17,212 bases of DNA from the UHGV virus genome UHGV-0185805; one strand, 5' to 3'. Below, in pieces: positions 1,365 through 17,212 of this stretch; the stretch's first letter is position 1, and every line of letters starts with the position of its first letter. This DNA is from a virus. The notes beneath the pieces are model-generated. The model had not been told where the DNA came from and did no database searches. It saw nothing but the letters and a program-made list of their open reading frames with translations. The position numbers and the translations under genes were made by a program.

Positions 1365-1973
1365 TTATTTGATTTCAATTTTGTCCCACTCCCTGCCTCT
1401 GTCATCACGATACTGTGATGCCATGGTGTCCGACTTATGCCCGAGAAGATGTTGAGCAAACTTATCGCTTATCTGCTTCTCATAGAGTCTTGCAGACAAA
1501 CTGCGCAACTCGTGAAAGGTAGGCGGATCCCCTTCGAAGGAAAGACCTGATGCTTTTCGTGCGCGCATAAAATACCTTGATACTGTGCCGGATGAAAGCG
1601 GTTCACGACGAGTAGATGCAATTATGGTTTCTCCGCCAAGAATCTCTTTGCATTTATCAAGTGTTTCCTTCATTGATATCCCGAGAGCATCAACATGCAA
1701 TGTTGTTGGGATGGCAATTTTTACGCCTGTTTTGCTTTGCTCGACATAAAGATATCCATCTACGATATCAGACCACTTCATTTCGCATAAATCACCAACT
1801 CGCTGCCCGGTAACAACAGCCAGTTCCATTGCAAGTCTGAGCCAACATGGTGATGATTCTGCTGCTTGATAAATTTTCAGGTATTCGTCAGCCGTAAGTC
1901 TTGATCTCCTTACCTCTGATTTTGCTGCGCGAGTGGCAGCGACAGGGTTTGTTGTTATATGGCCTTGTCGCCG
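1365..1973 (-). pseudogene. int: Lambda-type integrase fragment: C-terminal ~202 codons (catalytic domain) only; N-terminal arm-binding and most of core-binding domain absent; in-frame TAG at 1974-1976
   Basis: ORF 1365-1829 (MELAVVTGQRVGDLCEMKWSDIVDGYLYVEQSKTG...DDRGREWDKIEIK) matches the lambda Int C-terminus as remembered. In-frame homology (..GHITTNPVAATRAAKSEVRRSRLTADEYLKIYQAAESSPCWLRLA) extends 48 codons upstream to a TAG stop with no start codon. Catalytic residues (R in TGQR, HELR, GH, SQY) are retained. Confidence 0.85.
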
Positions 1974-2036: not shown

Positions 2037-2525
2037 TTATTTGATAAGAAGTGAAGGTTTCCCAACTTTGAGTTGAGCGCCGGGGATATTTATTCCTGCT
2101 TTTAGTTGGTGTTTGATTGCCAGTTTGTCGGCTTTAATTGTTGTTTCAAACTCAACGTATTCAGGAGGAAGGGCGCTTGAGTCGATTATTTCTACAATTT
2201 CTGACGGTTTGCGGATTGTTACCTGGTGAATACCTGCTCTAATCTTTTTCTTGCCTACCATTTCAAGCGATGACGCTATATATGATATGATGCTGTCAAT
2301 CTTATTTTGAATTACTGCGGCTCGCTCATTCAGTGACTTTGCCTCTTCCTTGAGGCGTTCAGCATAACCAGATTCATTTTTAATGACGGAAAGAAGTTGC
2401 TCTATTTTATCGGTAAATTCTCCTTCCATGCCTTCTATTGTGTCAGCAATCATCTCTGGCTCTAAATCTGAATCCATCAATTTTGCGTATTCATTGGCTA
2501 TTTCATATAGTTTACTCACTGGCAA
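2037..2525 (-). CDS. Phage Gp157-like protein (family commonly found beside RecT/ERF recombinases)
   Basis: 162-aa acidic helical ORF (MPVSKLYEIANEYAKLMDSDLEPEM...) immediately downstream of the RecT-like gene on the same strand. Family assignment is from memory of the Sipho_Gp157 pattern and synteny, not from a search. Confidence 0.5.
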   Translation of the reverse strand: MPVSKLYEIANEYAKLMDSDLEPEMIADTIEGMEGEFTDKIEQLLSVIKNESGYAERLKEEAKSLNERAAVIQNKIDSIISYIASSLEMVGKKKIRAGIHQVTIRKPSEIVEIIDSSALPPEYVEFETTIKADKLAIKHQLKAGINIPGAQLKVGKPSLLIK

Positions 2526-3168
2526 CCTCCAGTTTCGCTTTGCATTCTATGTAAATGGCTTGTACGTTATGCTGCAATTTCATTCCAGATGTCAGGCGAT
2601 ATGCTTCTGCAAAATATCGCTTCAAATCATCCATGTTTTCTGCCTGAGCCATTTCATCACAAAGAAGTTGTGCTTTATCCGTTATTTCCTGCTGGCGTTT
2701 CCGTTCATCTTCGCGGATATCTTCCTCTGATTTGTACGGCATAACTGGTTCAGTCCATACACCTTCTTCTTCGTTTAGTACGTGAATAGCACTATCAAGA
2801 CGTGATGCCTTAGGCCAATACTTGCTTGCACGCTTTACGACCGTCTTTCGCGCCATCTCATTCCAGTGATTTACCCATGGTCCTTTATCGCTGAATGCCG
2901 CCTTGCTTGTTTTCCTTACAGCCTCAATTTCAGCCAGACTCATCTCTTCCGTTAGATAATCACCTGCTGGCGTCTTAACTGTGCAGTAAACGCCAACGAT
3001 ATCACCACGATCACCGAAGGCGTTGTATTTATGGGTTGGTGCTTTATCAAGCCCGTTTGACTCATAGGTATCGTTAGCATGAACAAGTTTTGCCTGACCC
3101 CATGAGATAACACCAGACTCCATTGCAATATGGAGCAATCCCATATAACTGATATCAAGGCAAACCAT
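2512..3168 (-). CDS. recT: RecT-family single-strand annealing recombinase, N-terminally truncated; homology continues upstream to ~3255-3300 with no start codon
   Basis: ORF contains ...GPWVNHWNEMARKTVVKRASKYWP..., comparable to Rac RecT ...GPWVTHWEEMAKKTAIRRLFKYLP... as remembered. Reading upstream in frame gives ...AIINVAAIGITLNPASKLAYLVPRDG (RecT-like) back to a stop at 3301-3303 with no ATG/GTG/TTG, so roughly the first 70 residues of a normal RecT are missing. Confidence 0.7.
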   Translation of the reverse strand: MVCLDISYMGLLHIAMESGVISWGQAKLVHANDTYESNGLDKAPTHKYNAFGDRGDIVGVYCTVKTPAGDYLTEEMSLAEIEAVRKTSKAAFSDKGPWVNHWNEMARKTVVKRASKYWPKASRLDSAIHVLNEEEGVWTEPVMPYKSEEDIREDERKRQQEITDKAQLLCDEMAQAENMDDLKRYFAEAYRLTSGMKLQHNVQAIYIECKAKLEVASE

Positions 3169-3209
3169 GCCGTCGCGCGGAACTAGATAAGCAAGTTTGC
3201 TGGCCGGGT

Positions 3210-3377
3210 TTAAGGTGATGCCGATCGCCGCAACATTGATGATGGCGTAGGGCGGTGTAATACTTCTGAACTTATTGCTTCTTCGCGGGCCAGTACGCCG
3301 TTAGCTAATGCCTTTGCCTTTAAACGCTCACGACGACGAGAACGTGAATTGCCTTTGAACTGAGTTCTGCGTGTCAT
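3210..3377 (-). CDS. N: N-like transcription antiterminator, P22-type arginine-rich motif, truncated (55 codons, 3' part reads out of frame through RecT-derived DNA)
   Basis: First gene downstream of PL on the minus strand, RBS AGGAGG then ATG at 3375-3377: MTRRTQFKGNSRSRRRERLKAKALANGV... resembles the P22 N arginine-rich boxB-binding peptide (GNAKTRRHERRRKLAIER, from memory). A P22-type boxB hairpin lies in its leader. Normal N proteins are about 100 aa. Confidence 0.55.
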   Translation of the reverse strand: MTRRTQFKGNSRSRRRERLKAKALANGVLAREEAISSEVLHRPTPSSMLRRSASP

Positions 3378-3505
3378 ATAGACCTCCTGGTGAACTTTGG
3401 CGGTGAATACAGCCGGGCGACTAACTCCGGTAGCGTAATCATTGCAAAGCGCCTCCGCCGAGAAGGTTAGCTTCTGCATTCACCCCAAAGTTCACTTTGG
3501 TTATT

Positions 3506-3520
3506 GCGCTTTGTCAGCGC
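3506..3520 (-). promoter_or_regulatory. nutL boxB hairpin, P22 type (GCGCUGACAAAGCGC on the leftward transcript)
   Basis: Reverse complement of 3506-3520 is GCGCTGACAAAGCGC: 5-bp stem with GACAA pentaloop, between PL and the N-like start. Matches P22 boxB as remembered. Confidence 0.6.
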
Positions 3521-3578
3521 CGTAGATTCATATTTGAATCGTTGTATATTCACCGCCCTGGTGAGTAGTGCGTCCTGC

Positions 3579-3641
3579 TGATGTGTTTAGTATCACCGCC
3601 AGTGGTATTTATGTCAACACCGCTAGAGATAATTCATCACC
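3579..3641 (-). promoter_or_regulatory. Lambda-type OL1/OL2/OL3 operators with PL promoter (-10 GATACT at 3579-3584, -35 TTGACA at 3602-3607 on minus strand)
   Basis: OL1 TATCACCGCCAGTGGTA 3581-3597; OL2 CAACACCGCTAGAGATA 3605-3621; OL3 CATCACCGCAGATGGTT 3625-3641. 17-nt spacer between -35 and -10. Confidence 0.85.
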
Positions 3642-3802
3642 GCAGATGGTTATCTGTATGTTTTTTATATGAATTTATTTTTTGCAGGGGTGCATTGTTT
3701 GGTAGGTGAGAGATCTGAACTGCTATGTTTAGTGAGTTGTATCTATTTATTTTCAAATAGATACAATTGGTTATGTGTTCTTGGGTGAGGGGGATCGTGA
3801 GG

Positions 3803-3829
3803 CAAAGAAAACCCGGCTCTGTGGCCGGG
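3803..3829 (-). terminator. Rho-independent terminator at the end of the cI (PRM) operon, lambda t_imm-like
   Basis: Stem CCCGGC (3812-3817) / GCCGGG (3824-3829), 6-nt loop, followed on the minus strand by TTTTCTTTG; lies just after the stop of the ORF ending at 3838. Confidence 0.7.
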
Positions 3830-3837
3830 AATAACAT

Positions 3838-4216
3838 TTAGGAATCAAGGTCAGGTAGCATGATTTTCTCAATCAACGTCAATGCCCTTTGGTCTCGTTC
3901 AGCAAAATATTTAGGAGCGTACTGAGGCAGCCACACTTCGTTGAAGTATTGTTTGAAATCTGCAATATTCGTTTGGGTATAGACGTACCGGGAATGTCCG
4001 GCCATCTGGGTACTCATGGTTATATGTTGGGAATGTCTTCGGCTCAACCCCCCGGTTGTCACGGAGCCATTGCGAGAAAACCCTACCCTCTGAAATATCA
4101 GGGACCATTTTTTCTGGCAGCGTATATCCGGCCTGTTCAAGTGGCGCAACCAAGTTAAACGTCAGTTCATTAAGCATAGAAAAGTGCGTATGAGGAACTC
4201 TGCCTCGGTTTGTCAT
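3838..4216 (-). pseudogene. Hypothetical protein in the rexAB position, apparently disrupted by a -1 frameshift near 3985-4000 (ORF 3911-4216 carries the N-terminal part, ORF 3838-4149 the C-terminal part)
   Basis: Two overlapping minus-strand ORFs in different frames. 3911-4216 starts protein-like (MTNRGRVPHTHFSMLNELTFNLVAPLEQAGYTLPEKMVPDISEGRVFSQWLRDNRGVEPKTFPTYNHEYPDGR...) but ends Arg/Ser-rich. 3838-4149 starts junk-like but ends protein-like (...YVYTQTNIADFKQYFNEVWLPQYAPKYFAERDQRALTLIEKIMLPDLDS) right before the terminator. No family recognised. Confidence 0.45.
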
Positions 4217-4255
4217 ATACCGCTTAAGGTGGATAGGGAGTTCGGCAGGCGCTCT

Positions 4256-4597
4256 TTAACCTGACATCCACTCACGCACCCATCTCGATACTTGCACTGC
4301 AAATTTTGGAGATAGCCACTGAGCTAAATTAATTGCGATGTCTGGATGAACCCAAGTCCCTTGATTCTCTGCTCTTCCGCCTTTAAATGATTGAATTAAC
4401 TCCGATATGGGAATCCCCATATCGCGTGATAATTCATCAAAAAAATCTTGTGTTGTTTTTAGTCGTGTATAGTCAGCAAGTAGCTTCCCCGCAGACTTGC
4501 ACATCGCGGTGGCATTGATGTATCCGTCTTTGGTGCGAAGATGGATGACTTCTCCATCAACTTCTCTAGCGATTAATGCAAGTTGAAATTGTGTCAT
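4256..4597 (-). CDS. KilA-N domain protein (stand-alone, 113 aa) immediately downstream of cI
   Basis: ...DGYINATAMCKSAGKLLADYTRLKTTQDFFDEL...WVHPDIAINLAQWLSPKFAVQVSRWVREW fits the KilA-N/Bro-N signature as remembered. AGGA RBS 6 nt upstream of ATG; 31-nt gap after the cI stop. Confidence 0.75.
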   Translation of the reverse strand: MTQFQLALIAREVDGEVIHLRTKDGYINATAMCKSAGKLLADYTRLKTTQDFFDELSRDMGIPISELIQSFKGGRAENQGTWVHPDIAINLAQWLSPKFAVQVSRWVREWMSG

Positions 4598-4628
4598 AAA
4601 TCATCCTATTACGTGAAAAATAAAACAA

Positions 4629-5345
<717 letters not shown>

Positions 5346-5352
5346 TTAAATC

Positions 5353-5418
5353 TATCACCGCAAGGGATAAACTTCTAACACCGTGCGTGTTGACTATTTT
5401 ACCTCTAGCGGTGATAAT
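5353..5418. promoter_or_regulatory. Lambda-type OR3/OR2/OR1 operators with divergent PRM and PR promoters
   Basis: OR3 TATCACCGCAAGGGATA 5353-5369; OR2 TAACACCGTGCGTGTTG 5376-5392; OR1 TACCTCTAGCGGTGATA 5400-5416; PR -35 TTGACT 5390-5395 and -10 GATAAT 5413-5418; RBS TAAGGAGG before cro ATG at 5443. Confidence 0.9.
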
Positions 5419-5442
5419 GGTTGCCTGTACTAAGGAGGTTGT

Positions 5443-5643
5443 ATGGAACAACGCATAACCCTGAAAGATTATGCAATACGCTTTGGGCAAACCAAGACGG
5501 CTAAAGATCTCGGCGTATATCAAAGCGCGATTAACAAGGCCATTCATGCAGGCCGAAAGATTTTTTTAACTATAAACGCTGATGGAAGCGTTTATGCGGA
5601 AGAAATAAAGCCCTTCCCAAGTAACAAAAAAACAACTGCATAA
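5443..5643 (+). CDS. cro: Cro repressor (lambda type, 66 aa)
   Basis: [66 protein letters not shown], two substitutions relative to lambda Cro as remembered. Confidence 0.95.
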
Positions 5644-5650
5644 GTAACAC

Positions 5651-5696
5651 CGCTCTTTTCACAATGGACATTCGTCCTACGTCGCTGACAAAGCGA
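5651..5696 (+). promoter_or_regulatory. nutR: boxA-like CGCTCTTTT (5651-5659) and P22-type boxB hairpin TCGCTGACAAAGCGA (5682-5696)
   Basis: Located between cro and the cII-like gene, where nutR sits in lambdoid phages. The boxB loop (GACAA) is the same type as nutL. A hairpin ATGCGT-TTCC-ACGCAT at 5727-5742 may be a tR1-like structure. Confidence 0.55.
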
Positions 5697-5780
5697 GCCC
5701 CAAGATATCTGACCAACTAAGGCCATATGCGTTTCCACGCATACCTTTCAACTAACTATTCACTATTGGAAAATTAACAA

Positions 5781-6077
5781 ATGACACAAGCAAGTTATAG
5801 CAAGCCAACACAGCGAGAAATTGATCGCGCTGAAACTGATTTACTCATCAACCTGTCAACGCTTACCCAGCGCGGTCTGGCAAAGATGATTGGCTGTCAT
5901 GAATCGAAGATAAGCAGAACGGACTGGAGGTTTATTGCTTCGGTCTTGTGTGCTTTCGGAATGGCATCAGACATCAGTCCGATTAGCAGGGCTTTTAAGT
6001 ATGCATTGGATGGAATCACAAAGAAAAAATCCCCGGCCGCCACCGAGGATTTTAAGCAAATTGATATGCAATTCTGA
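5781..6077 (+). CDS. cII: CII-like transcriptional activator (98 aa), diverged from lambda CII
   Basis: Position after cro/nutR; C-terminus KKKSPAATEDFKQIDMQF parallels lambda CII NKKRPAATERSEQIQMEF (from memory); central HTH-like segment ...GCHESKISR.... Confidence 0.7.
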   Translation: MTQASYSKPTQREIDRAETDLLINLSTLTQRGLAKMIGCHESKISRTDWRFIASVLCAFGMASDISPISRAFKYALDGITKKKSPAATEDFKQIDMQF

Positions 6078-6109
6078 GGTCATTACTGGATCAATCTACA
6101 GGAGTAATT

Positions 6110-6271
6110 ATGACAAAACGTCGTAAGAAATACCAGGAAAAAGAAGAGATTCGACACCCTGATTCACCTGAGGGATTAGTGGTAGCCGCAGCAAATAACA
6201 GGGCGTTCGCAGAGCGCCTTGTTGGTGTTTACAGACTAGCCAAAGTAGGAGTGAAACATGGGCGTCGTTAA
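6110..6271 (+). CDS. Small hypothetical basic protein (53 aa) with strong RBS, unknown function
   Basis: AGGAG 7 nt upstream of ATG at 6110; MTKRRKKYQEKEEIRHPDSPEGLVVAAANNRAFAERLVGVYRLAKVGVKHGRR; stop at 6269-6271, 1 nt from the converging Q fragment stop. Below the ORF-track length cutoff. Confidence 0.3.
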   Translation: MTKRRKKYQEKEEIRHPDSPEGLVVAAANNRAFAERLVGVYRLAKVGVKHGRR

Positions 6272-6272
6272 G

Positions 6273-6752
6273 TTAGCTGATTGCTGGCATTCTTGAATAG
6301 CCGACACCTTTGCATCTTCCGCACTCTTTCTCAACAACTCTCCCCCACTGCTCCGTTTTGGCTATATCAACCGCACGGCCTGTACCGTGGCAATCTCTGC
6401 ATCTTGCACCCGGCGTCGCGGCACTACGGCAATAATCCGCATAAGCGAATATTGCGAGCACTTGCAGTACCTTTGCCTTAGTATTTCCTTCGAGCTTTGC
6501 CACACCACGGTATTTCCCCGATACCTTGTGTGCAAATTGCATCAGATAGTTGATAGCCTTTTGTTTGTCGTTCTGGCTGAGTTCGTGCTTACCGCAAAAT
6601 GCAGCCATCCCGAATCCGGCCTGTGATTGTGCCATCCCCATAGCAGCCATCACATCAGTACCGGAAAGAGAGTCAGAAGCTGTAGCCCGTGGTGAGTCGC
6701 TAATCATCGGGCTTTTTGGCGAATGAAATTTAGCTACGCTTTCGAGTCTCAT
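6273..6752 (-). CDS. Q: Antitermination protein Q, lambda type, C-terminally truncated (159 of ~207 aa), inverted relative to PR
   Basis: MRLESVAKFHSPKSPMISDSPRATASDSLSGTDVMAAMGMAQSQAGFGMAAFCGKHELSQNDKQKAINYLMQFAHKVSGKYRG...CRDCHGTGRAV...CGRCKGVGYSRMP matches the lambda Q N-terminal region including the zinc-binding cysteines as remembered; the ORF then hits a stop where lambda Q continues. Confidence 0.8.
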   Translation of the reverse strand: MRLESVAKFHSPKSPMISDSPRATASDSLSGTDVMAAMGMAQSQAGFGMAAFCGKHELSQNDKQKAINYLMQFAHKVSGKYRGVAKLEGNTKAKVLQVLAIFAYADYCRSAATPGARCRDCHGTGRAVDIAKTEQWGRVVEKECGRCKGVGYSRMPAIS

Positions 6753-7800
6753 GCGCCTTCTCCCTGTAATCGACCAGAATCATGCCAACACATCCTTTTT
6801 CTCGCTTGATTCGACGACTTTCGCTGACGATTTGAGCCAGAGATAATCCCGGCGTGTCGTCGATGTAAAGCAGGTCGATTTCACTCAAGCGATTGGCTGT
6901 TTCGATCGCCCTGTTGAAGTCACCATCGTAATCACCCTGATAGCCGTCATCAGCGTCATTTGTCGCCGGAAGGTAAAAAATATTCGGGTTAACACCAGAC
7001 TTCTGCCCTACCAGTTTTTCCAGTATCTGGTCACCTGGCATTTCAAGGCTGAACATCAGAGCGGGCTTTTTCTCATGCACTGCGCAGTTGATTGCCATCT
7101 GGCTGTATAGCGTCGTTTTCCCCATCTTAGGGCGAGCGCCAATGACAAACAGAGAGCCTTTCACCAGACCTTTCGGTGACAGCATCCTGTCCAGCGATGG
7201 GATCCCTGTGCTCATTCCTCGTTGTTCGCCTGACGGGTCAAATCGCTTCTCAAGGTCGCTAACCCAGTCTTCCATGACCTCACCAAATGAACGAAGGCCG
7301 CGACGCGATCCGGTTTTTGCATGGTCTGTCAGTTGCGTGAAAATCGACTGAATAGCTTCGTACTTCTGCGTTGCAGTCATTCCGTTGCGGGAATAGAGCA
7401 ATTCCGTCGCTTCAGTCATACGGTTGATGGCGTAGCGTTCCATTGCGGTTTCACGAACCTGCATTGCATAGGCAACGATGTTTGCTGCGCTTGGCGTGTT
7501 CTTTGCGATCTCAGCGATATAAGCAAAACCGCCAACAGACACAGTTAACGATTTACGCTCCAGTTCATCGAAAAGCGTCAGGCCATCTACTGGCTTTTGC
7601 TCCCGGTGCATTCTGGTTATTTCTTCGAAAAGGATTTTGTGTGGCCGGCTGTAAAATGAATCAGGCTTCAGCATCGCCAGAACCTTCTGGACGCGCTCAC
7701 TGCTGTCATCATCCAGAAGCAATCCACCAATCACCGCCTGCTCTGCCTCGATGCTATGGGGCGGCGCATAAAAATTATCGGTCATCGTGTTCACCCTCAC
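6730..7800 (-). CDS. DnaB-family replicative helicase (P22 gp12-like), C-terminally truncated at ~356 aa and abutting the Q start
   Basis: N-terminal DnaB signature SIEAEQAVIGGLLLD and Walker A GARPKMGKTT present; ORF ends ...GMILVDYREKAHETRKRS* just after the helicase motif where DnaB proteins normally continue ~100 aa; its stop overlaps the Q ATG. Confidence 0.75.
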   Translation of the reverse strand: MRVNTMTDNFYAPPHSIEAEQAVIGGLLLDDDSSERVQKVLAMLKPDSFYSRPHKILFEEITRMHREQKPVDGLTLFDELERKSLTVSVGGFAYIAEIAKNTPSAANIVAYAMQVRETAMERYAINRMTEATELLYSRNGMTATQKYEAIQSIFTQLTDHAKTGSRRGLRSFGEVMEDWVSDLEKRFDPSGEQRGMSTGIPSLDRMLSPKGLVKGSLFVIGARPKMGKTTLYSQMAINCAVHEKKPALMFSLEMPGDQILEKLVGQKSGVNPNIFYLPATNDADDGYQGDYDGDFNRAIETANRLSEIDLLYIDDTPGLSLAQIVSESRRIKREKGCVGMILVDYREKAHETRKRS

Positions 7801-8293
7801 GAACTTTCAGGTAGGTATTATCGTTAAGCAGGAAATCAAATCCCTTTTTGTGCCAGACAGTTCCGCGTTGATGGTTTGGACGCTCTTCGAACATCCATCG
7901 GCAATTTTCGCCTACGTAGCTCAAATAATTTCTCCAGTCCTGCATCGTGAACCCATGCCCGTCAAGCTGGCGGGTTATCACTCCGGCTTTGCGCCAGAAC
8001 GTTCGGATCTGGTTTTTACGCTTGTCATTCAGTGCGCGGATTCTTGGCGCTTCAGGAAGGATTTCGTGGTAAGCATCGACAACATCCTGACAGCTGACGG
8101 AAGGTTTTTTCTTGTCAGACTTTTTGTCTGCTGTAGCACTCTCTAATACGTCAGTATTAGAGATATTATTTATATTATTGTTTATGGACAACCGTTGGAC
8201 AATTTTTTGCCTGAAAATCGTCATATTTAACGATTGTAAACAGGCTAAATTTCTTCCCCATCGAGCAAATATTAAGCATACCTTTCGACTCAA
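7775..8293 (-). CDS. Replication initiator (O-like) linker and C-terminal part, in a different frame from the upstream N-terminal ORF (frameshifted single gene or two genes)
   Basis: ORF spans the AT-rich palindromic ori-like DNA (translated as ...SINNNINNISNTDVLES...) and ends overlapping the helicase start, as O-type genes do. Confidence 0.45.
   Translation of the reverse strand: MSRKVCLIFARWGRNLACLQSLNMTIFRQKIVQRLSINNNINNISNTDVLESATADKKSDKKKPSVSCQDVVDAYHEILPEAPRIRALNDKRKNQIRTFWRKAGVITRQLDGHGFTMQDWRNYLSYVGENCRWMFEERPNHQRGTVWHKKGFDFLLNDNTYLKVREGEHDDR
8140..8163. repeat. Perfect 10-bp inverted repeat TCTCTAATAC-gtca-GTATTAGAGA flanked by AT-rich DNA; candidate origin element inside the O-like gene
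   Basis: Read directly from the sequence; followed by tattatttatattattgtttat (8164-8186) and a second palindrome AATCGT-n8-ACGATT near 8214-8233. Confidence 0.4.
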
Positions 8294-8525
8294 AAGTCCG
8301 TAATAAGCTCCGAACTTTGTTGTCGGGGATGAATGTTTCTCTGACCAGCGACGGGCGTCCAGTTATCATCTGACCGCGATCAACAGTTATCGGACCGATA
8401 TCCGTATTGACGACAGTAGATTCGTGATTAGCCTTGAGGATTAAGTGAAGCCAAAGATGTACTGCCTGAGAGTCCTTATAGAGCCTGCTGTCCATAAACT
8501 GGCGGTGTATAGAGACATACCCCAT
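8175..8525 (-). CDS. Replication initiator (O-like / P22 gp18-like) N-terminal DNA-binding part
   Basis: MGYVSIHRQFMDSRLYKDSQAVHLWLHLILKANHES... resembles phage replisome-organiser N-terminal domains; directly upstream (same strand) of the helicase. Overlaps the next ORF 8175-8293 in another frame. Confidence 0.55.
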   Translation of the reverse strand: MGYVSIHRQFMDSRLYKDSQAVHLWLHLILKANHESTVVNTDIGPITVDRGQMITGRPSLVRETFIPDNKVRSLLRTFESKGMLNICSMGKKFSLFTIVKYDDFQAKNCPTVVHKQ

Positions 8526-8560
8526 ACTGGATGCCTCCTGATGTTGTACAGGGTTATGCC

Positions 8561-8869
8561 TGTAAACTCAAATCAACAGCCGCCGGACGTTACCAGCTTC
8601 TTTCCCGTTGGTGGGATGCCTACCGTAAGCAGCTTGGACTGAAAGACTTCTCTCCGAAAAGCCAGGACGCTGTGGCACTGCAGCAGATTAAAGAGCGTGG
8701 CGCTTTACCGATGATTGATCGCGGTGATATCCGTCAGGCTATCGACCGTTGCAGTAATATCTGGGCTTCACTGCCGGGCGCTGGTTATGGTCAGTTCGAG
8801 CATAAGGCTGACAGCCTGATTGCAAAATTCAAAGAAGCAGGCGGAACGGTCAGAGAGGTTGAGGTATGA
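8561..8869 (+). pseudogene. R: Endolysin R fragment (lambda-type transglycosylase, C-terminal ~100 codons only)
   Basis: ...[100 protein letters not shown] matches the lambda R C-terminal half as remembered. The N-terminal catalytic part and the holin gene are absent; the ATG at 8531 lies in junction DNA. Confidence 0.85.
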
Positions 8870-10443
8870 GCAAAGTCACCGCGATTATCTCCGCTCTGGT
8901 TATCTGCATCATCGTCTGCCTGTCATGGGCGGTCAATCATTACCGTGATAATGCCATCGCCTACAAAGAGCAGCGTGATAAAAAAGTCAGTGAGCTGAAG
9001 CAGGCGACTGCCACCATTACTGACATGCAGCAGCGCCAGCGTGATGCTGATGCACTCGATGCTAAATACACGAAGGAGTTAGCTGATGCGAAAGCTGAAA
9101 ATGATGCTCTTCGGCGCAAGCTTGATAATGGTGGCAGGGTGCTCGTCAAAGGAAAATGCCCTGTGCCATCCTCAGCCGAAACCTCCAGCGCCTCCGGCAT
9201 GGGCAATGATGCCACCGTCGAACTCTCTCCAGTTGCTGGACGAAACGTTCTCAGTATCAGATCTGGAAATCCAGCGTTTGTTGCACAGGCACAACAGGCG
9301 TTTTCCGGTCTTAATGAGCAGCAACGCAACGATATGGGCGATTTAGCCATGAGGGCTAACGTCGCTCTTTCTCAGGGACCGGAAGCCTACAGTAAATTCA
9401 TTACTGACAACAAGGACAGGTTAAATCGTGTGGGGGCTAATGCTGACTGGATGATTCAGACAGGTATCCAGAATCCAGAGCAGCTATCACACATGCTGAC
9501 TACTATGTCTCTCGGTGCACTTGGGCCAGAAAAGGCGTTTGCTGTTCAGGACAAGATAGCTGGTCGTGAGATTGACCGAGGCAGACTGGCAGAGACAATC
9601 CGCAGCAATCAGGCCAGCGAAGCACTTCAGGCGAGAGGGCAGGATATTAGCCGAGCAAATGCGTTAACGTCAGCATATGCACCAACAGCCGCAATGCAGA
9701 ATTACAATCAGTACGCGCAAATGTTAAAGGCGGATCCAGATGGTGCAGCGGCATTTGCGGCAGCGGCGGGAATTAATCCCAATGCTAAGAAATTACTTAA
9801 GGTTGAAACCAATCCTGATGGCTCGGTAACTAAGTATTACACCGATGGCAGCGAGGAAGCCGGAAAACTAAACCAACCTATATCTGGTGATGGCATTAAA
9901 CCAATTAGTTTGCCACAAGCGCAAAGCATCATAGATAAGGCTAATGAGGGTTCCAAGAAGGCGGCAGGATTTGCTTTGCGATTAAAAGATTCAATGGACT
10001 CAATGAATCAGCTTAGTAAAAGCATTGACCCTAAGCGAGTTGCATTAATAAATCGCTCTCTTGGTGATGGGACTATTGCAAATTTAAGCCTATCACCAGC
10101 GGAGCAGCAATATATGGTAAATGCGAGAGACGCCTTGTATGCAATTTTGCGCCCAGAAACAGGTGCAGCAATTACTCTGCCAGAGATGCAGGAGTATTCC
10201 AAAATGTACCTGCCTCAGCCTGGTGATTCCAAGGCTGCTACTGAAACAAAAATGCGAAAAATGCAGGGCCAATATAACTCATTACGTGGTCAGTCTGGTC
10301 GCGTTTATGATGCTTTGGTGGTTTCAAGTGTTGCAAATAGTCAACAACAGAGCAATAGCCAACAACCGACAAATACCCAACAGCAGCAGAGTCAATCCGG
10401 ATCATATACCTCAAAATCAGGCATTCAATTTACGGTGGAATGA
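8866..10443 (+). CDS. Chimeric ORF: Rz-like spanin 5' part (about first 125-135 codons) fused in frame to the C-terminal ~390 codons of a probable P22 gp20-type ejection protein
   Basis: N-terminus [31 protein letters not shown]...[16 protein letters not shown] matches lambda Rz and overlaps the R stop as in lambda; an Rz1-like lipoprotein ORF is embedded in the +1 frame. The remainder is Ala/Gln-rich and overlaps (ATGATGA) the start of the gp16-like gene. The gp20 assignment is by position, not by remembered sequence. Confidence 0.6.
9086..9346 (+). CDS. Rz1-like outer-membrane lipoprotein spanin embedded in Rz frame +1 (native end probably near 9275; 3' part may be junction-derived)
   Basis: [19 protein letters not shown] (signal peptide plus lipobox) followed by proline-rich [11 protein letters not shown], as in lambda Rz1. 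Confidence 0.5.
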
Positions 10444-12281
10444 TGAAAGTAACTGCAAACGGTAAGACATTTACCTTCCCTGATGGTACGAGCACGGAAG
10501 ATATTGGCACCGCCATTGATGAGTATTTTGCTGGTCAGGCTGTTCAGCAACAAACAGTTAATCAGGCCAATAATGAACCAGCACGTGAAGAACCATCATT
10601 GATGCAACAAGCTGGCGATTGGCTCACAGGTGGTCAAAGTGCAGGGCAAATTGCAGAGCAGGCTGGTCGTGGTCTGGTAAACATACCATTTGACGTATTG
10701 CAGGGCGGCGCAAGTCTGATTAATGCAATCAGTCAGGGGCTTGGTGGACCCAAGGTTTTGGATGATGTTTATCGTCCAGTAGACAGACCGACAGACCCAT
10801 ACGCACAAGCCGGTGAAACAATTGGTGGGTATTTAGTTCCAGGAGTTGGAACGGCAGGAAGCATGGCTATTGGATCACTGGCAGAGGCCGCAAATCAGAA
10901 AGGCGATTTCGCACAAAATGCAGCTAAAAATGCCGGAGTTAACCTTGCCGCTCAGGGGGTTCTTTCCGCAGCAGCAAAGGGAATAGGGCGTGGAATAACG
11001 GCTATAAAAGGTGATATTGCGCCAGAAGTGGCGAAGAAAATTGCCACATCAGAATCGATGGGCGTGACACCAATGACATCTGATGTTATCCCGCCGAAAA
11101 ATGCTTTCACTCGCGGCCTTACTCAGGATGCCGAGGGGGCTTTGCTCGGGACAGGCTCAAAGCGAGCGGAGCAATATGCAACGCGTAGTAAGTTGGTAAG
11201 TAATTATTTTGACCGTTTTGGTGAGTACAACCCGGATGATGTGGTGAAATCTCTGACCACCACGTTAAGGGGACGGAAGGATGCCGCTGGCGCTGTTATC
11301 AATGACGTCACCAATAAAATGGGGAATGCCGCAGTTGATACCACAAACACTATGAATGCTCTGAATACAGCGATCGCAAGACAGGAACGGCTTGGGACGT
11401 CTGCCAATCAAAGCCTGCTTACATCCTTGCGTAACCTACGCGAAGAATTAGCAAACCCTGCAACTGATTTGGATGTTACGTTTGATCTCTTGCGTCAGCA
11501 CAGAACAGCATTTAGATCTAATGTTCAGGGAGATGCTATGGTCTTCCCCAACCAGGCAAAAGCAGCTACCAATATGGTAGAGAATGCAATGTCAAAAGAC
11601 CTTCGTAACGCAGTTGCTAAAAACCTCGGTGCATCAGACGCAGCAAAATACCTTAAAGCAAATTCAGATTATGCAAACGTTTATAATAAGGTGCTTAATA
11701 AAAACATTGCTAACAAGCTCAACAAGGCAAGCAGTGAAGCCAGTCCTGAACTTATAAATACCGTTGTATTAAGCAGAAAACCATCTGACGTGAAACGAAT
11801 CTGGAGCGCATTGGATGATAAAGGGAAAGATGCTATGCGTGCAGCTTACGTCAGCAAAATAGCGGAAAAGGCCGGTGACTCTCCAGCCAAGTTCATCACT
11901 GAAGTTAATAAGCTTAAATCTCAGTCAGGCGGTGAAATTTACAACACTATTTTTTCTGGAAAGCACATGAAAGAGCTCGATGCTCTTCATGAAGTTCTAC
12001 AGCAAACAGCAAGGTCAGACACCGCAAATGTAGTAACTCAGACGGGGCAATCACAAGCCAACAGGATAAGGACGATTGGCGCAACTGCGACTCTTGGAGT
12101 ATCAATGGGGCTTGAGGCTGGTTTTGGTGCAATGATGCGTTTGTATGAGTCCAAAGCAGCAAGGAATGCGCTCTTACGTCTGGCAAACACTAAAGCTGGA
12201 ACGCCAGCTTATGAAAGAGCGCTAAATCAGGCTGCTACTGCCGTGCGCCCGCTCTTAGCTAACGAAGCGACCCGGCAGTAG
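10440..12281 (+). CDS. Probable DNA-ejection (internal virion) protein, P22 gp16-like (613 aa)
   Basis: Size close to P22 gp16 as remembered (~609 aa), Ala/Gly-rich, follows the gp20-like ORF with overlapping start and precedes the sieA-position / mnt-arc-ant / tailspike block as in the P22 map. Assigned by synteny; no search run. Confidence 0.6.
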
Positions 12282-12303
12282 CACTGTAAGCCAAGGACGG
12301 CAT

Positions 12304-12798
12304 TTATTTTATAGTTTTTATGAATTCTTTATTAAATCCCTTAGCTTCTCCGGGGTATCTTCCAAAGACAATTTTTATAAAAACAGAAAAAATAAAGATA
12401 GCAACGCTTAACAACAGTTGCAGTATCATTGGAACCCAAAGAACTACAGGCTCTATATTCATGAAACCAAATATTCTTCCGGCGATCATGGCGAAGTACC
12501 ACACTGTTATCAGCAAACTTAGTGGCATATGAATTACTGATATTACCAATCCAAGAGCATCAGTAATTCTATTTTCAAATTTTTCAGGGGAAAACTTTTC
12601 TTTAAGGTAATTCAGTGCGCAGGCCTCATTCTCTGGATTTTCAGCATTTTTCCCTATAGCAATAGAAATCTCAGATATCCTTGATTCAATTCTTTTGCGT
12701 TTAATAAAACTAGAAAAAAAGAACCACGCAATCTGCAACCCTATCCCCATAAATAGAGTTGCGGCAACTAGCACAGCGTAACTCATAGAATCAGACAC
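12304..12798 (-). CDS. Small inner-membrane protein (about 4 TM helices) in the position of P22 sieA; candidate superinfection-exclusion protein
   Basis: Hydrophobic segments ([25 protein letters not shown]; [31 protein letters not shown]; [30 protein letters not shown]); AT-rich. Start uncertain: GTG at 12796-12798 with GAGG 5 nt upstream, ATG at 12784-12786, or the track start at 12870. Confidence 0.45.
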
Positions 12799-13015
12799 AC
12801 CAACCTCTTTAGTTTTTCTAGTTACTTTGTCACGATAGGATATGCGAATTGATAAAACTAAATTGCGCACATGATAACTCAGTAATAATTGTTAATGAAA
12901 ACATGATCACCTATATTGCACAAGGCGAAACAGGAAGCATAATCTGGTTTCATGAGTGTGATCACGTTTGGGTAAATCAAAGTCAAGAGGAAATACTTGA
13001 AATTATCAAAAATAA

Positions 13016-13597
13016 CTATCTAAACGTTGCACACGACTCATCTATCCATTTTTCATAAAATTGTATACCGAGATAGGCAAGAACAGATGGATGTATATCA
13101 ACAAGCTTTTCGCCAAGATGTTCTGTTGGAGGTGGATAATCTTTTCCTTGGTTTCTTACGGTTATAGGCATAGTTGTTGCTGGATGAAACTCAACTATCA
13201 TAGGGTCGCCTTCGTATTTTGCTATTTTCCCTGTTGAATCAATGATTAACTCTTTAATATAATGGCTTCTTGCTCCCGGAAATGCCCCAAGAGTAGTATA
13301 AGGAGGTTCAAGTTTTGAGATTTCCATAGTGGAATGATGATCAGCATTTCTTGCTTGGTGAAGGTAAGCAAGTGTTTTGTCTGTTTTTCTAAGCATGAAC
13401 TTTTGGTTGAAGTGGCTGCTAAATTTTCCACTAACCGGCTTTGTTGCACAGAGCAACTTACTGAAAGACTTTTCTATATGCCCAAGACATTCTCGCCAGT
13501 GCATTTCAAAATCATCATGGTTTGTAGATGATTTCATCTGCTCTAGGCACTTTTTAGCTGCGATGATTTCTTTTTTTGCTGGGTTGTAATCGATCAT
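13016..13597 (-). CDS. Hypothetical 193-aa protein translationally coupled to mnt (ATGA overlap); possible HEPN-like RNxxxH motif; function unknown
   Basis: ATG at 13595-13597 overlaps the mnt stop (13594-13596); AGGA RBS lies inside the last mnt codons. AT-rich, no family recognised. Contains ...LHQARNADHHS..., which fits the HEPN Rx4-6H pattern but is weak evidence on its own. Confidence 0.6.
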   Translation of the reverse strand: MIDYNPAKKEIIAAKKCLEQMKSSTNHDDFEMHWRECLGHIEKSFSKLLCATKPVSGKFSSHFNQKFMLRKTDKTLAYLHQARNADHHSTMEISKLEPPYTTLGAFPGARSHYIKELIIDSTGKIAKYEGDPMIVEFHPATTMPITVRNQGKDYPPPTEHLGEKLVDIHPSVLAYLGIQFYEKWIDESCATFR

Positions 13598-13848
13598 TTT
13601 GCATCCTTGCCATACATGTTTTTAAGTGTCTCAAATACCACAGACTTGAACTGTTCAGCCTGCATCTCGGCTAATCGTTCAGCTTCATTGCGATAACCTT
13701 TTACAGGAGATGGTCTCGATAGAGCATCTTGGACGATTTGCAACAATTCTGAGTTCATTGATCTACCATTTGACTCTGCTCTGTATTTTAATTTTTCTCT
13801 TACTTCCAAAGGCATGCGGAAGTTAAAGTGCGGATCATCTCTAGCCAT
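13594..13848 (-). CDS. mnt: Mnt repressor (P22 immI maintenance repressor, ribbon-helix-helix)
   Basis: MARDDPHFNFRMPLEVREKLKYRAESNGRSMNSELLQIVQDALSRPSPVKGYRNEAERLAEMQAEQFKSVVFETLKNMYGKDAK is near-identical to P22 Mnt as remembered. It is the 3' 84 codons of track ORF 13594-14244, whose upstream extension is spurious. Confidence 0.85.
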   Translation of the reverse strand: MARDDPHFNFRMPLEVREKLKYRAESNGRSMNSELLQIVQDALSRPSPVKGYRNEAERLAEMQAEQFKSVVFETLKNMYGKDAK

Positions 13849-13870
13849 GCCATCACTCCAAGTTAGTGTA

Positions 13871-13922
13871 TTGACATGATAGAAGCACTCTACTATATTC
13901 TCAATAGGTCCACCGTGGACCC
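13871..13922. promoter_or_regulatory. immI control region: Pant (-35 TTGACA 13871-13876, -10 TATATT 13894-13899), Arc operator (13876-13896) and Mnt operator GGTCCACCGTGGACC (13907-13921)
   Basis: ATGATAGAAGCACTCTACTAT matches the P22 arc operator as remembered; the symmetric GGTCCACCGTGGACC matches the Mnt operator; arrangement between divergent mnt and arc as in P22. Confidence 0.7.
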
Positions 13923-13938
13923 ATATTGTGAGGTGAAT

Positions 13939-14100
13939 ATGAAAGGAATGAGCAAAATGCCGCAGTTCAATTTGCGGTGGCCTAAAGAAGTATTGGATTT
14001 GGTACGCAAGGTGGCGGAAGAGAATGGTCGGTCTGTTAACTCTGAGATTTATCAGAGAGTAATGGAAAGTTTTAAGAAGGAAGGACGCATTGGCGCGTAA
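13939..14100 (+). CDS. arc: Arc repressor (P22 immI, 53 aa)
   Basis: MKGMSKMPQFNLRWPKEVLDLVRKVAEENGRSVNSEIYQRVMESFKKEGRIGA is near-identical to P22 Arc as remembered; the track ORF start at 13876 lies inside the operator and is rejected. Confidence 0.9.
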   Translation: MKGMSKMPQFNLRWPKEVLDLVRKVAEENGRSVNSEIYQRVMESFKKEGRIGA

Positions 14101-14169
14101 AGTTGAAGCCCCAACTGCGGGAACAGTCAGGGCTTCGATATCGTAAAACCACGCATAGGAATTAACGAC

Positions 14170-15093
14170 ATGAAAAGTATAGCAACAGCAGTATCTACTA
14201 TCAATGTACCATTCCACGGCGCAGAGCTTTATGTTGTCAATCACAACGGTGAGCCGTACACCCCAATGAAACCTATCGTTGAGGGAATGGGTATGGATTG
14301 GGCTTCACAGTTTACAAAGTTAAAACAAAGATTTGCTAAAGGAATTGTGGAAATCGCAATACCTTCAGTTGGCGGTGTGCAGACCATGATTTGCCTTGCT
14401 TTACGTAAACTGAATGGCTGGTTGCAAACCATCAGCCCTAACAAAGTCCGCCCTGAAATCCGCGACAATGTAATCCAGTATCAAGAAGAGTGTGACGATG
14501 TGCTATACGAGTACTGGACTAAAGGCCATGTAGTTAACCCACGCAAAGCTAAAAAAGCGTTGCCGGGTAAAATCACCACTGAACAGCAGGAAGCCATTAA
14601 ACAACTCGTCATGAGTCGCGGTCAGTCTCTGCCAAAAGAAAAACAGGCTAAGGCGATGATCACCATGTGGTCGTCACTAAAATCCCATTTTGGATGTTCG
14701 TACAAAGAAATCAGTGAGGAGCAGTTTACCGAAGCACTATCACTTGCAGCTCGAGTTCCACTTGAAGGTGAGTTCATTGGCAAACAAGAGAAGAAAACCA
14801 ACGAGCTTTCTGCAAAAGAAGCAAACAGCCTTGTATGGTTATGGGATTATGCCAACCGTTCGCAGGCATTATTCCGCGAACTGTATCCGGCGCTAAAACA
14901 AATTCAATCGAACTATTCCGGCAGATGCTACGACTACGGTCATAAGTTCTCGTATGTTATCGGAATGGCGAGAGACGTTTTAATAAACCACACACGAGAT
15001 GTTGATATTAATGAGCCAGACGGACCAACGAATCTTTCCGCATGGATGAGACTTAAGAATAAAGAATTACCTCCTTCAGTACATAACTACTGA
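14170..15093 (+). CDS. ant: Antirepressor Ant (P22 immI type, 307 aa)
   Basis: Follows arc after a 69-nt spacer with an AGGA RBS and is followed by a terminator and the tailspike, exactly the P22 mnt-arc-ant-gene 9 synteny; size matches Ant (~300 aa). Confidence 0.7.
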
Positions 15094-15111
15094 CAGATAA
15101 CCAACGCAACG

Positions 15112-15136
15112 ACCCAGCTTCGGCTGGGTTTTTTTA
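15112..15136 (+). terminator. Rho-independent terminator downstream of ant
   Basis: Stem ACCCAGC (15112-15118) / GCTGGGT (15123-15129), loop TTCG, followed by TTTTTTT. Confidence 0.65.
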
Positions 15137-15193
15137 TGCCCAAAATTCACCGTAGCCATGCTGCGGCGATTCCTTGTATCTGGAGCAAATTAA

Positions 15194-17212
15194 ATGACAG
15201 ACATTACAGCTAATGTTGTAGTGAGCATGCCTTCGCAACTCTTCACTATGGCTCGTTCTTTTAAAGCTGTAGCCAATGGCAAAATTTATATCGGTAAAAT
15301 TGACACTGACCCGGTAAATCCTGAAAACCAGATTCAGGTTTATGTGGAGAACGAAGACGGATCTCACGTTCCTGTTTCGCAACCAATCATCATTAACGCT
15401 GCTGGATATCCGGTATATAACGGACAGATTGCCAAATTCGTTACCGTGCAAGGCCATTCTATGGCTGTTTATGATGCATATGGTGCTAAGCAGTTCTATT
15501 TTCCGAATGTGCTGAAGTATGACCCTGATCAATTAAGAGAGGAATTATCTAGTAAAGGTGGTTTTAATTTAGTTGGTGAGTTGGGTGCTGTATCTGATTT
15601 TTATGGAATGGAATCTAATAATGGAGATAAGGTTTTACTAAAGTCATGGTATCGAGATGGAAGTGGTGGTGGTGGTATTTTTGAGTTTAATGACAGCATA
15701 ATAAGGTCGAAGCATGACGGAGGGTGTATAATATCACCATCAGTTCCATATATTGGAGATGCATATGTATCAGACTATGTAAACGGAGTTGGAGATGAAC
15801 ATCCATCATCAAACGGTTGTTGGGTTAGAAGAGACATCAAAGAAATCACAGGTGAAATGTATGGTATGCATGGAAATCCTGATGATAACTTGGACTTATC
15901 ACCAAATCTAAGGAAGGCCATTTCAGCCGCCGGAGTTCTTGGGCTTGGGGTCGTTTTACCAGGCAATATTATAAATTTAAAATCACCAGTATCAATACCA
16001 ATACACCAGAGAGAAGGTGGAAAAGTAGCTTATATAAGAGGTGTTGACGAAAAGTTATCAATAGTAAATATACTAGCTTCAGAAACTTCGCAGAATAATT
16101 TCGGGATTTATCTTGATGGCTCTCTTTCAGTATTTTCATCATTCCCCATAGAAAACCTCACTATCAGATCTGTAGATTCAAGTGCCAATAGATCTGACTG
16201 GTCAGGATTTGGATTAAATATAAACAAATGCATCAGGCTTTCAATGAGGAATGTTCTGATAGATGGCTTTGAGATTGGGTGTAAACTGAAAGATTCATTA
16301 TATCTTGAGTTTAACAATTGTAGATTTACTTATAACAAAACAGCAATACAAGGAAGACTTGGTGAAGTGTCAGGACCAAACTCAATAAGACTTTCACGCT
16401 GTGATTTTCAGTACAATGCTGAATTTTGTATCGAAAACCAACACGCACACGCTTGGAAAATTGACACTTGTACGTTTGAAGCAAATGGAGGGAAATCATA
16501 TTCCAACGGGACCCCAATTGCATTTAATTCGTGCGTACAGTTTGCGTTGATTGGTGGTGCAGGTCGTGTCGCAGCAACAATTGATAATTGCTATTTCGAA
16601 TCAAATACTGGTTCTGATGTGAGTTTTTACATAAACAGAAACTTAAATCAAATTATTAACATAAATAATTCAATATTTAACTATAATTTAGATTCCGTTA
16701 GCGCATCTAGAGTTATAGTACAGTCAAATCAATCAGATCTCAGTTCTGGTGTTCAATGTTATTTGAATATGATGGGAAATGGTTTTCTTAACACTGGTGC
16801 TTCTGCTGAATCTGCATTTAAAGAAGTGCAATTTGTCGTCCCTTCATCTTTTGGTGTTAGCCATCTTGTTTTTACAGACTTTGGCAACCAAAATTCAATG
16901 AAATCACCATATTCTGGATTGGAAAAAGTTCAGAGAAATAGCCAAGGGTTGGTATCTGCAAGAGCAAATATTTCATCTACAGGTGCTTATTCATTAGCTC
17001 AGAACATATCAAATGTATCTAGACTGCCATCAGGAACATATAAGATAGATTTTACATTTAACGTTTCAACACTCGTTCCAAATATTACATTGTTTGGAGG
17101 ATCTGGTAGATATTCAAGTTTCTCAAGGGATTCAGACTATTCAATTACGGTTAAGACATTTAATAATACAGGTGCCAATGTTGATTTGGATTTTATTATT
17201 ACAGTAATGTAA
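15194..17212 (+). CDS. Tailspike protein: P22 gp9-type N-terminal head-binding domain (~115 aa) fused to a divergent AT-rich beta-helix receptor-binding domain (672 aa total)
   Basis: [60 protein letters not shown]...[31 protein letters not shown] matches the P22 tailspike N-terminus as remembered; homology and GC content drop after about codon 115 (near 15540). The remainder is rich in N/S/G/I repeats typical of right-handed beta-helix polysaccharide-binding or depolymerase domains. Stop at 17210-17212. Confidence 0.85.

Follow-up and report, generated by a model that had tools for sequence, protein, structure and literature searches.

The stretch of DNA analyzed here (the window) comprises 17,212 nucleotides of the virus genome UHGV-0185805. 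It starts from ybhC on the left, and its recognizable phage features begin with a C-terminal fragment of a lambda-type integrase, 154 amino acids long (1365-1829, minus strand), which is joined at approximately 1960-1966 to a gp157/recT module. This module includes a recT remnant that lacks its first ~55 codons (recT', 2512..3248, minus strand) and in which the longest ORF still present begins at an internal ATG, at 3168. A truncated N gene (N'), PL and OL, cI and cro occupy 3210-5643, and between OL and cI lies a bstA-like pseudogene (3838-4597, minus strand) with an in-frame stop and a frameshift. To the right of cro are nutR, cII and a 53-residue ORF belonging to phrog_1331, which is of unknown function (5651-6271). 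Q, a C-terminally truncated DnaB-like helicase and a split O-like gene follow on the minus strand, opposite to PR (6273-8525), and then a C-terminal endolysin fragment (8531-8869) and a 525-residue ORF in which Rz is fused to gp20 (8866-10443). The remainder of the window, from 10440 to its end, holds a P22-like gp16, a possible sieA-like ORF that has no family match, an mnt-like gene, sar RNA, ant and the tailspike gene.

The N pseudogene (3210..3377, minus strand) consists of 44 native codons of an N of the HK97/H-19B type, followed by 11 codons of recT read out of frame and the stop TAA 3212-3210. Its start codon is ATG 3377-3375 on the minus strand, with a strong ribosome-binding site, AGGAGG, ahead of it. 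The 55-residue product is MTRRTQFKGNSRSRRRERLKAKALANGVLAREEAISSEVLHRPT followed by PSSMLRRSASP. Residues 1-44 are identical at 44 of 44 positions to the 127-residue N proteins of H-19B, HK97 and mEp234. An earlier reading of this DNA, made from the sequence only, had proposed that N keeps its boxB-binding N-terminus as about 36 native codons; the N-terminus is indeed kept, with the arginine-rich motif 12-RSRRRER-18 intact, and the alignment with these three proteins raises the native part to 44 codons. N' thus has 44 of the 127 codons of full-length N before the frame changes and translation stops. Residues 45-127 (83 residues) are gone, and with them the C-terminal motif LPxVALYAAGxRKSKQxTAR, which is the RNA-polymerase-binding end of the protein.

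Profile searches recognize the fragment as N-like. It matches phrog_271 (N-like) with E = 1.2e-9, and scores 25.8 bits against Pfam PF25694, over profile positions 6-55 only and below the cut-off of 27.9 bits; full-length H-19B N and P22 gp24 score 57.9 and 152 bits against the same profile. Residues 1-44 gave no match among PDB sequences, and a search for a second N remnant elsewhere in the window found none. An 89-residue ORF from ATG 3479 was considered as N and rejected as an in-frame extension into the leader; H-19B carries an additional base just ahead of its N start, and the equivalent of ATG 3479 is thereby out of frame.

The N-terminal part also distinguishes between possible N families. 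Residues 1-44 align with the N-terminus of P22 gp24 with a local score of 46, which was reached by none of 500 shuffled sequences, as against a score of 35 with lambda N, which was reached by 4 of 500. The arginine-rich region can be aligned with that of P22 gp24 (GN..RR.ER), and the full-length proteins have PF25694 in common, but their overall identity is low: in a BLASTP comparison, H-19B N and P22 gp24 match solely over the C-terminal 30 residues, at 70% identity, and the arginine-rich region is not reported. These 30 residues belong to the part that is deleted in N'. Lambda N has the same RRRER core in its arginine-rich motif but is otherwise barely alignable with an N of the type found in the window (pairwise E = 0.012).

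Both nut sites are present. On the minus strand, nutL is composed of a boxA-like element, CGCACTACT (3564..3572), named after the annotation of EF120460; a spacer hairpin, GAUUCA-AAUA-UGAAUC (3525..3540), with dyad symmetry of the H-19B type, between boxA and boxB; and boxB, GCGCUGACAAAGCGC (3506..3520), which has a 5-bp stem and a GACAA loop. On the plus strand, nutR (5651..5696) has the same arrangement, with boxA CGCTCTTTT at 5651-5659, a spacer hairpin GGAC-AUUC-GUCC at 5666-5677 and boxB UCGCUGACAAAGCGA at 5682-5696. The boxB elements read GCGCTGACAAAGCGC (3520..3506, minus strand) and TCGCTGACAAAGCGA (5682..5696, plus strand). They have in common the 11-mer GCTGACAAAGC, which occurs as exactly two copies in the 17.2-kb window, both at canonical nut positions: approximately 60 nt past the PL start, and between cro and cII. 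Predicted folding energies are -8.5 kcal/mol for the nutL boxB and -6.4 kcal/mol for the nutR boxB (z = -3.5 and -2.4 respectively, against dinucleotide shuffles). Letters and RNA folding agree on a GACAA-loop hairpin at each of the two places where one had been proposed.

The spacer hairpin of nutL is present in both the minimum-energy and the centroid predicted folds, and a comparison of H-19B, mEp234 and the window shows its stem to be conserved and its loop to be variable. Such dyad symmetry in the spacer was reportedly described by Neely and Friedman in 2000 as a hallmark of H-19B nut sites. The gathering-threshold scan of the window with Rfam found no nut or boxB family, its sole match being the sar RNA. 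At the level of individual letters, the nutL boxB is identical to the nutL boxB of P22 (15/15) and to the annotated boxB of mEp234, while boxA and boxB of nutR match those of HK97 and mEp234 exactly and nutR of H-19B is near-identical. All four elements, that is boxA and boxB of both nutL and nutR, are annotated letter for letter in EF120460, the record of the mEp234 immunity region.

Four groups of phages were compared with the locus in detail. HK97, mEp234 and HK106 (NC_002167, EF120460 and EF120461) are wild lambdoid phages with lambda immunity specificity. They agree with the window in OL and PL, cI, OR, cro, the boxA and boxB elements of the nut sites, N residues 1-44, cII, and the mosaic borders described below; they differ from it in being viable and in having a full-length N of 127 residues. 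Between OL and cI they carry hicAB or gp48/49, where the window has the bstA-like pseudogene. HK97 has the same nutL as the window but a different leader between boxB and the N start, the leader of the window being the H-19B version. In H-19B (AF034975), which has the N-nut of the 933W family of Stx phages, the PL transcript is near-identical to that of the window over the whole length between +1 and N codon 44, nutL and the leader included, and both the nutR spacer hairpin with its boxB and the motif 12-RSRRRER-18 are as in the window. H-19B differs in having an intact N and an immunity of its own, with only 40 of 237 cI residues and 14 of 66 Cro residues identical.

P22 (NC_002371) is like the window in its nutL boxB and in having GACAA loops in both boxB hairpins. 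It is unlike the window in that its nutL has a canonical boxA and lacks a spacer hairpin, its nutR boxB stem is CCGCC/GGCGG, and its c2/cro immunity is unrelated. Lambda agrees with the window in the positions of the nut sites, in PL and PR, in the operators and in the repressor, but its boxB elements are GCCCUGAAGAAGGGC (nutL) and GCCCUGAAAAAGGGC (nutR), with GAAGA and GAAAA loops, and it too lacks the spacer hairpin. The window contains neither a boxB of the lambda form GCCCUGAARAAGGGC nor an N of the lambda family.

On these comparisons we assign the N/nut module to that of HK97, H-19B and mEp234. The sequence-only reading had called it P22-type. As the name of a class this appears to be correct, given the GACAA loops, the membership of full-length N of this type in PF25694, the 15/15 match of the nutL boxB and the alignment scores of 46 and 35, and alignment of the nut regions with lambda and P22 likewise gives hairpins of the P22 class rather than those with lambda GAAGA or GAAAA loops. 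P22 itself is not the nearest relative, however; HK97, H-19B, mEp234 and HK106 are nearer.

The region between the two nut sites is of a different origin. PL (-35 TTGACA, -10 GATACT) and the three left operators, OL1 (3591-3607), OL2 (3615-3631) and OL3 (3635-3651), make up a lambda-type control region at 3589..3651 on the minus strand. The cI gene (4629..5342, minus strand) is intact and encodes a repressor of 237 residues, of which 233 are identical to lambda and 235 to HK97. It is followed by OR3 (5353-5369), OR2 (5376-5392), OR1 (5400-5416) and PR (5390-5418), all lambda-type and within 5353..5418 on the plus strand, and by a lambda-type cro (5443..5643, plus strand) whose 66-residue product is identical to lambda Cro at 64 positions. 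Each of OL1-3 and OR1-3 has 0-1 mismatch to lambda, with the lambda spacing kept, and the hexamers of PL (3617-3589) and PR are those of lambda. The immunity module is on this basis predicted to have lambda specificity, which bears out the proposal that its operators, cI and cro are of lambda type. Beyond nutR, the cII gene (5781..6077, plus strand; PF05269) is of the HK97/H-19B type, with 97 of 98 residues identical to HK97, 88 of 98 to H-19B and 32 of 98 to lambda.

The bstA-like pseudogene sits at the position of rexAB in lambda, and is of an abortive-infection gene type. Its KilA-N part (4256-4597) ends at the in-frame stop, a middle piece (3911-4216) matches BstA in PADLOC with E = 4e-12, and the last piece (3838-4149) carries a frameshift, with a terminator-like hairpin beyond it (3829-3812). 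A 345-residue gene between N and cI of one relative (L017) was considered as an intact version of the gene at 3838-4597, and proved to be unrelated.

The lambda-specificity module (OL/PL, cI, OR/PRM/PR and cro) is thus flanked on both sides by an antitermination module of the HK97/H-19B type, with nutL (degenerate boxA, spacer hairpin and GACAA boxB) and N on the left and nutR and cII on the right, in what is the natural layout of HK97, mEp234 and HK106. The borders can be placed quite precisely. On the left, a 161-nt query running from OL3 to boxB has homology to lambda over 3655-3550 and to H-19B over 3583-3495, and the overlap indicates an exchange point within approximately 30 nt at the start of the PL transcript, which is common to all these phages (3583-3550). 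On the right, the two homologies coincide in a single short stretch, the cro stop and the boxA of nutR, at approximately 5637-5657. Alignment with lambda is lost just past the conserved start of the PL transcript on one side and past the boxA of nutR on the other. The joints therefore lie on either side of the immunity module, at short sequences that are conserved, and not inside it.

The same arrangement is found elsewhere. The complete joint was present in 10 phage records, HK97, mEp234, HK106 and PhiR5_2 among them, and both the joint and the pairing of lambda immunity with an HK97-type N-nut occur in 111 of 5,426 complete E. coli genomes. A mosaic joint had been proposed within the immunity region; the joint exists, but it lies at the borders of the module and is not peculiar to this DNA, since it recurs in HK97, mEp234 and HK106. 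The pairing of this N/nut type with lambda immunity is already known from these phages, and is common. The cI-to-N region is described as a hotspot of mosaic diversity in PMC8585504, which cites the study by Degnan et al. (2007, Mol Microbiol 64:232) of wild phages that carry lambda immunity.

A further difference from these phages is the junction of N with recT. Homology to phages and prophages that bear N ends at 3247; from 3248 to approximately 1960 the sequence is homologous to the recT-gp157 module found in HK140, mEpX1, Dewey and others. The recT remnant is 97-98% identical to recT of HK140, mEpX1 and Dewey; its match to the 912-nt recT of HK140 begins at nt 167, that is 166 nt into the gene, and against Pfam PF03837 it covers profile positions 60-186. 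The junction (3247..3248, minus strand) joins N codon 44 to recT codon 56, with a 2-bp microhomology, AC, present in both parents. The intact N parent reads ...CACCGCCCTAC|TCTAAGC across the joint and the intact recT parent ...CACAGAAC|GCTATCATC, while the window reads ...CACCGCCCTAC|GCCATCATC. AC comprises the only bases in common at the joint, as is characteristic of an illegitimate deletion. Within recT, the frame of N' is off by one base and meets a stop after 11 codons. Homology on both sides therefore confirms the claim of a truncated N-like ORF that continues out of frame into recT DNA.

In relatives, the interval between N and the recombinase gene is approximately 1.8-2.6 kb and is filled with small genes, including those of cIII and kil type. 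We therefore estimate that the deletion was roughly 2-3 kb, a size inferred from relatives that are not identical to the parent. We propose that an illegitimate deletion of this length produced the fusion at the 2-bp microhomology. It took N residues 45-127, including the RNA-polymerase-binding C-terminal domain, and left the boxB-binding arginine-rich motif; it would also have removed all of the genes normally present between N and recT, which by analogy with the non-identical relatives probably included cIII- and kil-type genes.

The truncated allele is found in many assemblies. The exact 55-residue product is encoded in 287 blocks of the assembly collection, on 199 contigs labeled E. coli (for example strain SCD1), and always lies beside ybhC-ybhJ-ybhI-ybhH. 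The window is 99.8-100% identical to eight of the loci carrying this product. Sister copies show further deletions, with 5535-6766 absent in two of them (L012 and L015) and 6526-15473 absent in a third (L013); there is a 77-bp indel among the sister loci at 8185-8202, and in one (L014) only a 90-residue ORF is found at the position of cI, which is disrupted. The occurrence of the junction in many loci, some of them with additional deletions, indicates that it is real and inherited within a lineage, and that the element is still eroding. The junction is absent from 5,426 complete RefSeq E. coli genomes, in which no place covers at least 80% of the junction-spanning query, and an exact scan with a 38-nt junction sequence found no match in contigs representing one genome per species. 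A host other than E. coli was considered in view of this absence, but the 55-residue protein is labeled E. coli.

The adjacency of two reading frames could in itself suggest a sequencing or assembly artefact, or a programmed frameshift that joins N to RecT, and nothing else speaks for either. An artefact is hard to reconcile with an identical 55-residue product and junction in many independent assemblies, some of them with multi-megabase contigs. Frameshifting is hard to reconcile with a reading frame that is one base out of register in the recT DNA and stops after 11 codons. Moreover, both partners are truncated, N by 83 codons and recT by 55, as a deletion produces. We give this explanation practically no credence, and retain the deletion.

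The same type of N shows other states in E. coli. In strain 81 (L001, 6343-6729) it is frameshifted at approximately residue 88, and in HB37 (L016, 10062-10442) it is intact at 127 residues according to tblastn. In RefSeq, the HB37 gene is represented by a partial pseudogene and an unrelated overlapping ORF, and automated annotation of this small gene is unreliable. A 367-residue protein (P0003) that falls in the same 90% cluster as the 55-residue N' resembles a membrane permease and is unrelated by eye; it is probably a clustering artefact.

The likely effect of the truncation can be judged from work on H-19B N, in which the N-terminal arginine-rich motif (12-RSRRRER-18; PMC3526286) binds boxB and the C-terminal domain binds RNA polymerase (PMC3526286, PMC4499122); L108 lies in this C-terminal domain (PMC4499122). 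H-19B N deleted for residues 101-127 still allows passage of tR1, a nut-proximal, Rho-dependent terminator, whether in vivo or in vitro, whereas read-through of a second, distal terminator is lost, and deletions in 88-95 cause a partial defect even at tR1 (PMC3526286). Since N' lacks the whole of 45-127, processive antitermination at distal terminators is almost certainly lost, and N' is most probably inactive. The sequence-only reading had considered antitermination to be probably lost. For the processive activity this can be put more strongly, as an inference from the H-19B deletions; a loss of all antitermination is less certain, because the C-terminally deleted H-19B protein still acts at tR1. 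PL is under the control of an intact cI, so N' would be expressed only after derepression. A simple scan of the minus strand between N' and ybhC found no terminator-like site.

The activity of C-terminally deleted H-19B N at nutR/tR1 (PMC3526286), together with the intact 12-RSRRRER-18 motif and boxB hairpins of the window, raises the question of whether N' could be a functional mini-N that binds boxB after derepression and locally blocks Rho at tR1, allowing expression of cII and of genes downstream. We consider this very improbable. The published deletions remove at most the last ~40 residues, where N' misses 83 of 127, and the missing part very probably includes the NusA-contact region that the local effect requires. 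In addition, beyond tR1 lie only cII and a replication block that is inverted and broken, and nothing else of use. It is still less probable, and indeed hardly to be expected, that N' has been kept as a boxB decoy against superinfecting phages of the HK97/H-19B/933W type, including Stx phages, by occupying boxB without recruiting RNA polymerase. Were this true, it would amount to a Nun-like or dominant-negative exclusion of phages with the same nut specificity.

The region of N' is very probably the PL-proximal part of the early-left control region in a defective prophage, a lambdoid/P22-like hybrid integrated at att-lambda beside ybhC in E. coli, with an N gene cut by deletion. The xis gene and the N-terminus of int are gone from the window, what is left of int being joined to sequence downstream of the gp157-like gene, and the element therefore cannot excise. 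The window has no xis, head or terminase genes; the normal layout can be seen in relatives that are intact and occupy the same chromosomal site. It has the makeup of a cryptic prophage: int is a fragment, the O-like gene is frameshifted, the helicase is truncated, the Q block is inverted, the lysis genes are broken and head genes are lacking. The prophage is thus non-viable for several independent reasons, so that the loss of N has no further effect on its viability as a phage.

Other parts of the element show its history. Q is 159 residues long (PF03589), and the block of Q, helicase and O-like gene lies on the strand opposite to PR-cro-cII, which indicates an inversion together with loss of the nin region, with endpoints at approximately 6272 and 8526. 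In the Rz::gp20 fusion, an Rz-like spanin extends from residue 1 to approximately 135 and an ejection protein of the P22 gp20 type from approximately residue 97, and the deletion at this point took the end of the lysis cassette and all of the head genes. Further to the right, the sar antisense RNA of P22 immI (14101-14168, minus strand) matches Rfam RF00262 at 81.8 bits; it has an mnt/arc-like ORF (13594-14244) on one side and ant (14170-15093) on the other. From this position we conclude that a second immunity region, of the P22 type, has been retained in the remnant; the tailspike gene beside it is cut off by the end of the window.

Although so much has been lost, cI, the operators and PRM are intact while almost all lytic functions are damaged. 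This pattern could reflect positive selection for the deletion: loss of N and of kil/cIII-type genes would ground the prophage, so that SOS derepression is no longer lethal, while cI maintains immunity to superinfection. It is well established that lambda prophages that are N- are not lethal upon induction. In relatives, the space separating N from the recombinase gene holds kil and cIII-like genes, and the allele is on record on 199 contigs; both observations point in the same direction. Against this, the prevalence may merely reflect clonal descent; the disrupted cI of L014 and the deletions in L012, L013 and L015 look like continuing neutral erosion; and the neighboring bstA-like defense gene is itself a pseudogene. 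We therefore see selection as a possible but rather unlikely explanation of the deletion. Irrespective of how the deletion arose, the remnant may still confer immunity of the lambda type on its host by means of the intact cI, which would be a known kind of prophage domestication.

The practical value of these results lies in annotation. The 55-residue product, which databases describe as a hypothetical protein or as "Phage antitermination protein N", can be recognized as a fragment of an N pseudogene, and the boxB hairpins can be assigned to the HK97/H-19B class of nut sites. Nothing here is new in kind, and the truncation of N is one of many scars that this cryptic prophage carries. The locus provides a textbook example of two processes: the modular exchange of lambdoid phages at short conserved boundary sequences around the immunity module, and the step-by-step decay that a resident prophage undergoes through microhomology-mediated deletions.
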